Origin: Pyrinomonadaceae bacterium
GTDB lineage: Bacteria > Acidobacteriota > Blastocatellia > Pyrinomonadales > Pyrinomonadaceae
Length of the DNA: 64,000 nt
Assembly (NCBI GenBank): GCA_028284415.1
Contig: JANQRU010000007.1
Span: 969,243 to 1,033,242, forward strand
Direction: 5' to 3'
The position numbers were made by a program, and so were the translations under genes. The notes below the pieces were generated by a model. That model had not been told where the DNA came from, ran no database searches, and saw only the letters and a program-made list of their open reading frames with translations. Each line of letters starts with the position of its first letter. Within the stretch, counting starts at the first letter, position 1. Positions 12,615 through 41,059 of the stretch are shown here, one piece after another.

Positions 12615-13010
12615 AATTTAGAGTTTTGCAAAAAATGAGAGTTATTTCAAAGCTAAGTGAATTTGTTCTGCTAAAACTAAGTCAGTGCTTATAATTAAAA
12701 ATTGCGATCAAAGAAATTTTTCTCTGACCGCAAAAAGTAAAACACTATAGAAAAGATGGAAACTGGTGTTTTACGCACTTGTTTAACTAAACAATAAAGG
12801 AGTTAAATTAAAAGTCCCTTAAGCTTTTCATTTATCAATACCCATGTTCAGAAACTTTTATTGATGACCTGCCAAGAATACATCAAAAAATTTGCTTCTA
12901 CTTACTAATGCGTAAATTCTCCTAAAAAAGTGTCACTGATAATGAAAAAAAAAATTTCAACCCTCTCAAATTTTCCGAAAAATTGTTTTACGTGATACTT
13001 TAGTCAAGCT

Positions 13011-38762: not shown

Positions 38763-38820
38763 GAGTTTAGAGTTTGGAGTTTGGAGTTTTTTCTGAAATC
38801 TGAAATCTGGAATCTGAAAT
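38763..38820. repeat. Two adjacent heptanucleotide tandem arrays: (GAGTTTR)x4 and (CTGRAAT)x4
   Basis: Read directly from the sequence: gagtttagagtttggagtttggagtttt then ctgaaatctgaaatctggaatctgaaat, in the rplU-rpmA spacer. Confidence 0.8.
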
Positions 38821-38826
38821 AAACAA

Positions 38827-39111
38827 ATGGCTCATAAGAAAGGTGTAGGTTCATCAAGAAATGGACGTGATTCAAACCCGAAAATGCTCGGGATCAAAAA
38901 ATATGGTGGAGAAAAAGTTCTCGGCGGTAATATCTTAGCTCGCCAACGTGGAACAAAATGGAAGCCGGGCAGCAACGTAGGCAAAGGAAAAGATGACACT
39001 CTGTACTCTTTGATTGATGGCGTTGTAAAATTTGAAACAAGAGGTCGCAAAGGTAAATTTATCAGCGTTTATGCTGAAGGTTCGCCGGAACTCGAAAAAG
39101 CCGCCGCGTAA
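38827..39111 (+). CDS. rpmA: 50S ribosomal protein L27
   Basis: [29 protein letters not shown]... is unmistakably L27. Confidence 0.9.
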
Positions 39112-39136
39112 ATACTTACAAAATTTTTATAAGAAA

Positions 39137-39172
39137 GATGGTGATACTTTTAGCTATCGCCATCTTTTTTGT
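39137..39172 (+). terminator. Intrinsic terminator after rpmA
   Basis: GATGGTGATA / TATCGCCATC stem with one G-U pair, followed by TTTTTTG. Confidence 0.65.
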
Positions 39173-39410
39173 ATTTATTTAGATATTTCAAACTAAAATT
39201 TACAATAAAAATATTTTTTTTAGACTTCTTTTGGGGGAGTTTTCCACAGCTTTGTTGACATTTCAAAAATAATTTGAGTTTTCTTAAACCTAATACTTCA
39301 TTGATTTTGTAAAGTTTTCCACAGAGTTTTCCACAGGCACTTGCATATTTTTTGTGCAAAAGGTGGAAATTTTATGCTCAAAAAATGCAAATACTTAAAG
39401 CATTTTCTAC

Positions 39411-39438
39411 TTGACTTTGGGAAAAACGGGTGTATTAT
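39411..39438 (+). promoter_or_regulatory. Near-consensus sigma70 promoter driving a non-coding transcript
   Basis: TTGACT (39411-39416), a 16-bp spacer, then TG-extended TATTAT (39433-39438). No ORF follows. Confidence 0.55.
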
Positions 39439-39444
39439 ACCTCT

Positions 39445-39962
39445 CACAGTCAACAATGCTTACGGGCTTTTGACCGATACAAGGATAGGCAAATAGAGCG
39501 GTGACGCATTATTTGAGAACAATGAAAAGCGGAAAGTAGTTGTTATAACACCTTGAATCGAAACCGAAAGGTTTTGCTAGGAAAGGTTGATAAACTTTTC
39601 TGAGTTATTTGAATAAAAACAAGTAACACCTTTTTGGCAAGGAACCACCAAAAGGAGCTAAAAGTCGCTTATTACTTTATGTAGTAAGCCTCGTTGCCGG
39701 GAACGTAACCGGAGGTGGAGGTAAAGCCACCGAAATAAAAACCTAACGGCACTGACAATCTTCGGAATGTAGAAAATGTGCAAACATTTTAAGTGCTGAC
39801 CGGAAAAATTCTCCGCAAGAATTTGATTTCGGAATACAAAATTCGGCGATTGATGCGTGTACATGCTCAATCGCCAACATTATCCAGAATACCTTGAGTA
39901 TTCGATAATTCACGGAAAATACTGTTTTGACATTCTTGTTAAAACAGTATTTTCCTTTTTGT
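39445..39962 (+). ncRNA. Candidate structured non-coding RNA of about 520 nt, class unknown
   Basis: A 900-bp gap between rpmA and obg has no ORF of 60 aa or more on either strand except two implausible antisense frames. The candidate is bounded by the promoter above and a strong terminator: GGAAAATACTGTTTT / AAAACAGTATTTTCC 15-bp stem (39914-39955) followed by TTTTTGTG. Only stop-interrupted mini-frames lie between them. Confidence 0.45.
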
Positions 39963-39995
39963 GCGTAAATATAAAGAAATAGAGCTTTTTGCTAA

Positions 39996-41059
<1,064 letters not shown>

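Follow-up and report, generated by a model that had tools for sequence, protein, structure and literature searches.

An apparently undescribed large structured RNA next to obg in Blastocatellia (Acidobacteriota)

To our knowledge, bacterial RNAs with as many conserved helices as the one described here are rare: besides ribosomal RNA, RNase P RNA, transfer-messenger RNA (tmRNA), and self-splicing introns, only OLE, GOLLD, ROOL, HEARO, and raiA are of this kind. Each of those large RNAs has led or is leading to new biochemistry. We analyzed a stretch of 64,000 nucleotides (nt) from a Pyrinomonadaceae bacterium (contig JANQRU010000007.1, positions 969,243 to 1,033,242; hereafter the window), in which a 914-bp gap separates the end of rpmA (39111) from the start codon of obg (ATG at 40026). 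A preliminary description of the window had placed an unclassified noncoding RNA (ncRNA) in this gap, with a long conditional leader of obg as the fallback reading. The gap appears to contain the gene of an undescribed large structured ncRNA that is found class-wide in Blastocatellia (Acidobacteriota) and whose complexity is in the range of OLE, ROOL, or raiA RNAs.

OLE RNA (RF01071) resembles the window RNA in its length (about 0.5-0.6 kb), in its many covarying helices among highly conserved nucleotides, and in being lineage-restricted, chromosomal, and single-copy, with a function that is not deducible from sequence. The two do not match in sequence or structure, however. OLE is an RNA of anaerobic or extremophilic Firmicutes and is co-transcribed with or located beside its partner oapA, whereas the window RNA, found in Blastocatellia, is flanked by a promoter and a terminator of its own and lacks a constant neighbor. 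ROOL and GOLLD are also large and ornate, with many hairpins and conserved loops. They form RNA-only homo-oligomers, as determined by cryo-electron microscopy (PMC12286853); in the window RNA and its homologues, the palindromic tetraloop of the hairpin at 39845-39875 (GUAC, or GGCC in subgroup 2) would permit loop-loop self-association. However, ROOL and GOLLD are often associated with phages or prophages and located near tRNAs, whereas the window RNA occupies stable chromosomal sites, was not found in viral contigs, and has no Rfam match. The raiA motif RNA shares with the window RNA the properties of a stand-alone ncRNA gene of the abundant type and a conserved complex fold; it is only about 200 nt long and belongs to Firmicutes and Actinobacteria. 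6S RNA and Ms1 are independently transcribed, trans-acting, stable RNAs with strong promoters, often in conserved housekeeping neighborhoods. The window RNA is probably similar in these respects; however, 6S RNA is a rod of about 180 nt whose central bubble mimics an open promoter, whereas the window RNA is about three times longer and multibranched. RNase P RNA (type A or B) is of comparable size, is encoded by a stand-alone gene, and has GNRA tetraloops in a multi-domain fold; its relation to the window RNA is considered below.

Homologues, covariation, and gene contexts

We searched a metagenome collection with an exact 21-nt pattern from the core of the RNA, CGTTGCCGGNAACGTAACCGG. At least 120 contigs matched, nearly all of them from soil, and about 117 of the matches listed are real homologues. 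The sequences L113, L167, and L187 have only the seed in common with the others; these chance matches were left out of the family alignment. The homologues fall into three groups according to their gene context. In group 1, the RNA is located between rplU-rpmA and obg. In group 2 (GC content about 52%), the RNA is preceded by the gene for 3-methyladenine glycosylase (tag) and followed by genes for a VOC/glyoxalase protein, an EamA transporter, and succinate-semialdehyde dehydrogenase (SSADH). In group 3, it is located between the gene for a DUF protein and lpxD, which is followed by dut. The named relatives of the neighboring proteins in groups 2 and 3 are from Pyrinomonadaceae or Blastocatellia. 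Between groups, BLAST detects a 66-nt core only; the multiple sequence alignment revealed homology over the full length. In all three groups there is a promoter at about 280 nt from the core, and a terminator.

A subset of 45 sequences with pairwise identities below 85% was aligned with MAFFT (alignment A3), and a consensus fold was calculated with RNAalifold. Compensatory double changes were present in 53 of the 78 pairs in this fold, often in 10-20 sequences per pair. In total, 95.5% of the cells were paired, compared with 30-45% when the 3' partners were slid by 1-3 columns; the covariation score was 0.464, compared with 0.06-0.13 in the slid controls; and none of 500 shuffles reached any of the observed measures. 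Compensatory substitution, a hallmark of an independent ncRNA gene, is thus present beyond the controls. The conservation of the RNA in three genomic contexts and these substitutions show strong selection on a specific multi-helix fold, and on loop and linker sequences, that is independent of genomic context.

The minimum free energy of 39440-39962 (523 nt) was -163.7 kcal/mol, versus -114.1 ± 5.7 kcal/mol for dinucleotide shuffles (z = -8.66). The opposite strand folds less strongly (-142.6 kcal/mol, z = -4.7), and many G-U pairs in the covarying helices become A-C mismatches when read on the other strand. The G-U pairs and the asymmetry in folding energy identify the plus strand as the RNA strand.

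The preliminary description had noted the lack of a credible open reading frame (ORF) in the gap of about 900 bp, and the homologues lead to the same result. Mechanical ORFs of 28-70 aa do occur on both strands, which could be taken to mean that the locus encodes one or more small proteins. However, no ORF on either strand keeps its position, length, or frame among the 45 homologues; each frame through the conserved core is broken in at least one homologue, with the shortest stop-to-stop span ranging from 6 to 22 codons depending on the frame. In addition, the indels are not multiples of three, and the substitutions are paired, not synonymous. We consider a coding function extremely improbable.

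The window Obg is 93% identical to the Obg of a Pyrinomonadaceae metagenome-assembled genome (MAG). Identity to the query ranges from 76% to 100% among the best 120 Obg homologues, of which the named ones are from Pyrinomonadaceae, Aridibacter, Blastocatellia, or Acidobacteriota. Exact look-ups of L27 and Obg from the window, and of the 100%-identical P0001, returned no record. We compared seven Obg-anchored loci (L081, L082, L083, L084, L085, L086, and L207). Four of these (L081, L082, L083, and L086) contain an RNA homologue; here rplU and rpmA are followed by a gap of 0.8-1.5 kb and obg, and the alignment with the window begins upstream of the promoter and extends to the terminator. At the junction between rpmA and obg in L084 and L207 (Aridibacter famidurans MAG), the two genes are about 65 bp apart and no RNA is located between them. 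L085 carries obg in another context, as does L001, the only close relative to emerge from a search of genome contigs with Obg, in which a universal Obg peptide dominated the matches; in L001 the synteny is different and no RNA is present at obg.

These contexts bear on the possibility that the RNA is a long cis-acting leader or attenuator, similar to a riboswitch, with conditional termination before obg. The RNA is located directly upstream of obg, on the same strand, in the window and in about 35 loci, and the terminator ends 64 nt before the obg ATG, as previously described. However, the same RNA is found beside unrelated genes in group 2 (tag and VOC-EamA-SSADH) and group 3 (DUF and lpxD-dut). 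In L097 and L177, the gene that follows the RNA is convergent with it, and 3.7-5.2 kb separate the RNA from obg; in four loci the RNA is 3-5 kb from obg; and L084 and L207 do without an RNA between rpmA and obg. Moreover, obg has its own promoter (TTGCYAA, 17 nt, TACAAT), which is conserved downstream of the RNA terminator in about 30 obg loci, where it ends 7-9 nt before the ATG or GTG start codon without an intervening Shine-Dalgarno sequence, and also in L001, where the RNA is absent. The terminator has a stem of 19 pairs and no evident antiterminator. Neither the constant, co-oriented association with obg nor the lack of an independent obg promoter that would characterize a leader or riboswitch was found, and the fallback reading of the preliminary description is unsupported and largely refuted; we give it hardly any credence. 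The three unrelated contexts, together with the promoter of obg itself, argue for a stand-alone RNA that is probably trans-acting. The distance of 7-9 nt between this promoter and the start codon makes a near-leaderless obg mRNA from its own promoter most likely, and suggests that leaderless or near-leaderless obg mRNAs are found in Blastocatellia.

Transcription unit, fold, and comparison with known RNA families

The hexamers of the sigma-70-type promoter (TTGACT at 39411-39416 and TATTAT at 39433-39438) fit 10 of 12 consensus positions in a consensus scan. In the 36 full-length group 1 sequences, both hexamers are conserved, as is their location about 280 nt before the core motif. The hexamers, spacer, and coordinates given in the preliminary description stand; the TG it noted directly abuts the -10 hexamer, is thus not a canonical TGn extended -10 element, and was not counted in the scan. 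An A/T-rich element abuts the -35 hexamer; it is near-invariant as AGTTAAAGTATTTTCTAC in group 1 homologues and could serve as an UP element or be bound by a factor. The terminator previously described as a 15-bp perfect stem was recovered with a longer stem: its arms (39914-39932 and 39937-39955) form 15 perfect pairs, one G-U pair, and three further pairs, followed by TTTTTGT. Across the family, all 15 pairs evaluated in this helix (helix 27) covary, and 91% of the cells are paired. Promoter, body, and terminator are kept together in the aligned homologues. As judged from these signals, the RNA has a promoter and a terminator of its own, as is typical for an independent ncRNA gene.

The consensus fold has about 17-20 helices in two or three multibranch domains around a core of twin hairpins, with two GNRA tetraloops, several A-rich loops, and conserved joining strands. 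A long-range helix proposed by RNAalifold (39469-39471 with 39917-39919) clashes with the terminator stem; it was discarded and the supported 5' hairpin put in its place. The features, in order along the window, are as follows.

39128-39173 (+): intrinsic terminator of rplU-rpmA, the upstream boundary (consensus scan and alignment of relatives).
39393-39410 (+): A/T-rich element ACTTAAAGCATTTTCTAC, abutting the -35 hexamer (conserved in relatives).
39411-39438 (+): sigma-70-type promoter, TTGACT, 16-nt spacer, TATTAT (consensus scan).
About 39445 (+): predicted transcription start (from the promoter position).
39445-39962 (+): predicted primary transcript of the structured ncRNA, about 518 nt (ends from promoter and terminator).
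39449-39474 (+): 5' hairpin, GUCAA/UUGAC with an inner 2-bp stem and the conserved loop UUACGG (39460-39465); helix 1 is 91% and helix 2 is 98% paired, with covariation (GC, AU, CG, GU) in the inner pairs.
39475-39560 (+): 5' multibranch domain with closing helix 39475-39484/39551-39560 (covariation; compensatory changes in 8 of 9 closing pairs; helices of the domain 96-100% paired).
39498-39507 (+): GUGA-capped hairpin within this domain (covariation, 3 of 3 pairs compensatory).
39518-39522/39540-39544 (+): hairpin within this domain, with conserved GCGG in its loop (39529-39532) (covariation, 5 of 5 pairs compensatory).
39561-39574 (+): near-invariant hairpin AAACC-GAAA-GGUUU with a GNRA tetraloop (helix 5, 100% paired).
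39581-39600 (+): variable hairpin (helices 6 and 7, 6 of 6 pairs covary).
39604-39627 (+): hairpin with a covarying stem (helix 8, 99% paired, 4 of 5 pairs covary) and a conserved A-rich loop; family consensus G-GAUAAAAA-C, in the window AAUAAAAA.
39630-39655 (+): hairpin (helices 9 and 10, covariation in 6 of 6 pairs) whose loop of 10 nt is CAAGGAACCA in the window and AAAUGAUCAG or AGAGGACCCG in other subgroups.
39667-39689 (+): hairpin of variable length (helix 11, 98% paired, 4 of 5 pairs covary).
39690-39746 (+): invariant core, consisting of CUCGUU, hairpin GCCGG-GAACGUAA-CCGG, hairpin GGUGG-AGGUAAAG-CCACC, and an A-rich linker ending in ACCUAAC; the twin hairpins span 39696-39731.
39747-39798 (+): domain closed by CGGCAC/GUGCUG (helix 14, 97% paired, covariation in 4 of 6 pairs) around variable hairpins; about 60 nt are inserted here in group 2.
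39800-39832 (+): helix CCGG/UCGG (helix 15, 100% paired, almost invariant) around a small hairpin whose loop contains conserved CCGC (39813-39816).
39833-39844 (+): conserved single-stranded AAUACAAAAU (alignment).
39845-39875 (+): hairpin GGCGAUUG/(C)AAUCGCC, capped by conserved CGUGUACAUG (helix 16, 7 of 8 pairs covary, 93% of cells paired).
39879-39909 (+): 3' hairpin AUUAUC-CA-GAAUAC ... GUAUUC-GAUAAU (helix 26, 84% paired, covariation in 5 of 6 pairs), with an outer part that is confined to the window.
39914-39962 (+): intrinsic terminator with a 19-pair stem, 4-nt loop, and U-tract (consensus scan and family covariation).
39989-40028 (+): obg promoter, TTGCTA, 17 nt, TACAAT, with its end 8 nt from the ATG (40026) and no Shine-Dalgarno sequence; the downstream boundary (scan and conservation).

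The core is 85-92% identical to the window in all three subgroups. The invariance of its first hairpin is partly forced by the search pattern. The stem of the second, which is located outside the pattern, is identical in 45 of 45 sequences (helix 13); this is the GGTGG-CCACC hairpin already noted in the preliminary description, here placed at 39714-39731. Most sequences have a palindromic apical tetraloop in the hairpin at 39845-39875. It is GUAC in groups 1 and 3 and GGCC in many group 2 sequences, others of which have GACG. This loop could in principle mediate loop-loop homodimerization. Loop-loop contacts between UUACG (39460-39464) and CGUAA (39704-39708), and between GCGG (39529-39532) and CCGC (39813-39816), are not claimed, because both partners are invariant and one is forced by the search pattern. 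An AGGA in the loop at 39719-39726 recalls a CsrA-type sponge; this idea was rejected, because only one to three GGA loops are present and these are not conserved across subgroups. Likewise, a resemblance of a subgroup 2 loop (GAGAGGACC) to the sarcin-ricin loop is not conserved in the other subgroups. Two further observations concern repeats near the coding genes: the rplU-rpmA spacer contains heptamer tandem repeats at 38762-38820 (AGAGTTT four times, followed by TCTGAAA four times), and similar (C/T)CTAAAAT heptamer runs are found in L086, L088, L093, and L182, inside the spacer of the obg promoter, just upstream of obg.

In a scan with Rfam 15 (4227 covariance models), no match at gathering thresholds was found in the whole window. 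At E <= 10, the region 39100-40040 had only sub-threshold miRNA and sRNA noise on the two terminators, plus RNaseP_bact_b at 11.5 bits, versus a gathering threshold of 97. A scan of 13 homologous loci (138 kb) gave no match to the large RNA, and a scan of the divergent, GC-richer homologues L149 and L100 at E <= 5 returned nothing relevant. The sole hit in the 13 loci was an unrelated Acido-Lenti-1 RNA (RF01687) at 12803-12850 (minus strand) of the group 2 contig L166, about 1 kb from the large RNA, with 40.7 bits versus a gathering threshold of 37. ARAGORN predicted neither tRNA nor tmRNA in the window. The earlier exclusion of RNase P RNA, tmRNA, signal recognition particle (SRP) RNA, and 6S RNA by inspection is backed by these scans, and the discrete, unclassified ncRNA transcript of the preliminary description is supported by conservation and covariation in related loci, by the lack of an ORF, and by the lack of an Rfam match.

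A highly divergent form of one of these four housekeeping RNAs would also be encoded by a stand-alone gene with a strong promoter and terminator, would be conserved throughout a lineage, and, in the case of RNase P RNA or tmRNA, would be of similar size. There is also a superficial likeness between GCGGAAAGU and the RNase P CR-I block GGAAAGUCC, and between AUACAAAAUUCGGC and CR-V. The hallmarks of bacterial RNase P RNA are the P4 helix, formed from the GGAAAGUCC and ACAGAAnnCGGCUUA blocks, the P1 end pairing, and the P7-P10 cruciform. In the window RNA, however, GCGGAAAG is located in the loop of the covarying local hairpin 39518-39544 and not in a long-range P4 helix; the blocks that had suggested RNase P, GCGGAAAGU and ACAAAAUUCGGC, are found in a local hairpin loop or a single-stranded linker and cannot form P4. 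Pairing between the 5' and 3' ends is without support, and the P4 pseudoknot, P1 end pairing, and CR-I to CR-V blocks are all missing. tmRNA, which is characterized by a tRNA-like domain (T-arm and CCA-proximal acceptor) and a tag reading frame, was rejected because neither a tRNA-like domain (ARAGORN) nor an Rfam match was found. The consensus structure covers about 470 nt and strings together about 17 local helices within multibranch domains; such a hairpin chain is unlike the rod of 6S-type RNAs, which also had no Rfam match. SRP RNA, whose hallmark is domain IV (helix 8) with symmetric and asymmetric loops and a GNAR tetraloop, had no match at any Rfam threshold used, and its topology differs. 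A divergent housekeeping RNA is therefore a very unlikely explanation.

If the RNA belonged to a mobile element or phage, for example as a guide or scaffold similar to HEARO/omega-RNA, ROOL, or GOLLD, this would account for the large and ornate structure and for the different positions in different lineages. However, within each lineage the position is syntenic and stable, with one copy per contig and no terminal repeats. Genes for a transposase, IscB/TnpB, a reverse transcriptase, or phage proteins are not adjacent, and the core had no match among 2.9 million viral contigs. Rfam matches were found to none of OLE, GOLLD, ROOL, raiA, and HEARO, and the neighbors are rplU-rpmA/obg, tag/VOC, or DUF/lpxD. 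We attach only a very small probability to a mobile origin.

A literature search with exact sequence strings and keywords returned nothing relevant, although papers outside the literature searched may exist. A survey of 224 motifs mentions no Acidobacteria, obg, or rpmA (PMC5737381). We call the RNA family new because no relation to any known family is detectable.

DnaA-box-like sites upstream of the RNA promoter

Upstream of the promoter, the window contains an array of DnaA-box-like sites.

39240-39248 (+): distal DnaA-box-like 9-mer TTTTCCACA, after a T-rich tract (sequence match; recurs in relatives).
39313-39336 (+): two tandem 12-nt units AGTTTTCCACAG, which contain two DnaA-box-like 9-mers, 39315-39323 and 39327-39335 (conserved in relatives).

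The 9-mer TTTTCCACA begins at 39240, 39315, and 39327, which places three copies within 96 bp; only five are present in 64 kb, with 1.8 expected by chance. The array is located 75-170 bp upstream of the -35 hexamer, and the T-rich tract that precedes the distal box (39174-39239) has a GC content of 20%. The two-box core is invariant among four aligned sequences. All 41 rpmA/obg-type loci with enough upstream sequence (e.g., L089, L119, L151, and L168) contain two to five TT[AT]TCCACA or TCCACA sites on the same strand. The spacings in these 41 loci are mostly 11, 12, 23, or 24 bp, and the boxes are thus helically phased; many of the sites are exact matches to the DnaA-box consensus TTATCCACA. 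Many group 1 homologues again have a distal box, 74-75 bp before the proximal pair and itself preceded by a T-rich tract. By its sequence, the array is a DnaA-box cluster, with multiple matches to TTATCCACA (at most one mismatch) in helical phase. In groups 2 and 3, such boxes were found in none of 54 loci. The interval between the box pair and the promoter contains, in the window, an imperfect 22-nt tandem repeat, TGCAAATTTTATGCGCAAAAAA (2.3 copies, 39342-39392), whereas a small conserved hairpin, CCCGTAAAATAAGGG, takes this position in many relatives.

The array resembles the DnaA-oligomerization region of oriC, datA, DARS, and the Bacillus subtilis DnaA-box clusters in having several TTATCCACA-type 9-mers in the same orientation with a period of about 11 bp, and a distal box next to an A/T-rich tract. 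Unlike these, the window array is not beside dnaA, has no visible skew switch, and is directly upstream of an ncRNA promoter. DnaA is an initiator of replication as well as a transcription factor. The array probably provides a lineage-specific DnaA input to the RNA promoter or the locus; it could make the promoter DnaA-regulated, titrate DnaA, or be part of an origin-like region.

Alternatively, transcription itself might be what matters: the locus would be a DnaA-assembly region similar to oriC, datA, or DARS, in which the strong, outward-facing promoter mainly modulates local supercoiling or DnaA action, and the RNA would be secondary or act at the origin. The two to five boxes in the same orientation, the distal box, and the T-rich tract with about 20% GC recall the left half of E. 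coli oriC, and the array is present in 41 of 41 group 1 loci. In L001 and L085, obg is preceded by neither rpmA nor the RNA, yet inverted DnaA-box-like pairs are located upstream of it. In contrast, all 54 group 2 and 3 loci have the same RNA and no box, which indicates that the RNA is under selection independently of the boxes, and the strong covariation shows that the folded product matters. In addition, no dnaA gene was found in the window or in any of more than 120 loci, and there is no clear switch in GC skew or gene orientation at 39.2 kb within the 64 kb. We consider this explanation unlikely, though less so than those discussed above, and prefer the reading of a folded RNA with a function of its own.

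The inverted pairs differ in their arrangement. In L001 (2800-2935), a DnaA-box-like 20-bp inverted repeat (TTATCCACAGATGAACACAG and CTGTGTTCATCTGTGGATAA) flanks about 80 bp of A/T-rich DNA upstream of obg; in L085 (3435-3495), the pair upstream of obg is GTGGATAA ... TTATCCACT. The RNA promoters of groups 2 and 3 have a near-invariant AAAATAAAACAC(A/G)C just upstream of the -35 hexamer (e.g., at about 2890-2905 in L149 and about 900-915 in L186). This element, possibly an UP element or the target of a binding factor, replaces the DnaA-box array in these groups.

Proposed mode of action and implications

That the locus encodes an independent structured ncRNA of a new family is, in our assessment, very likely. 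If the mode of action as a folded, trans-acting RNA is included, the reading is less certain but still probable. Transcription would start at the strong sigma-70-type promoter and stop at the efficient intrinsic terminator, and obg would be transcribed separately from its own near-leaderless promoter. The architecture suggests that the RNA adopts a compact tertiary fold. The stable RNA would then act in trans as a folded object instead of through simple antisense pairing; most likely it would be a scaffold or subunit of a ribonucleoprotein (RNP), or possibly a catalyst. In the lineage of the window, the DnaA array probably couples transcription of the RNA, or use of the locus, to DnaA.

Several points weigh against this interpretation. 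The use of an exact 21-nt pattern for retrieval makes the invariance of 39692-39712 partly an ascertainment effect. Some variable hairpins were poorly aligned by MAFFT and have low scores (helices 4, 17, 18, and 22); these were not relied on. The RNA is not present at the compact rpmA-obg junctions of L084 and L207. The transcript ends are predicted from the promoter and terminator, and stability and abundance are likewise predictions, as are action in trans, any protein partner, and DnaA binding. No gene for a partner protein is consistently adjacent, and the RNP role is drawn solely by analogy with other large ornate RNAs. Finally, the array is missing in two of the three subgroups, in which the RNA is equally conserved; the boxes are therefore not essential to the function of the RNA.

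A more far-reaching interpretation has a small chance of being correct: the RNA would be the founding member of a class of large RNAs of ribozyme or RNP grade that is universal in Blastocatellia and that, in Pyrinomonadaceae, is tied to a phased DnaA-box array, taking part in or reporting on the control of replication initiation. If so, it might be, for example, a regulatory or structural RNA near the origin, or a growth-state RNA under DnaA control that acts together with the neighboring ribosome-assembly genes obg and rsfS.

Blastocatellia are abundant and poorly studied soil Acidobacteria, and the RNA is present in more than 100 contigs from soil metagenomes. It is a new target for structural and functional RNA biology and a marker that merits inclusion in the RNA family databases; such intergenic regions are otherwise annotated as empty. 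In the lineage of the window, a structured RNA gene and a conserved DnaA-box array are physically linked, an unusual arrangement that is directly testable.

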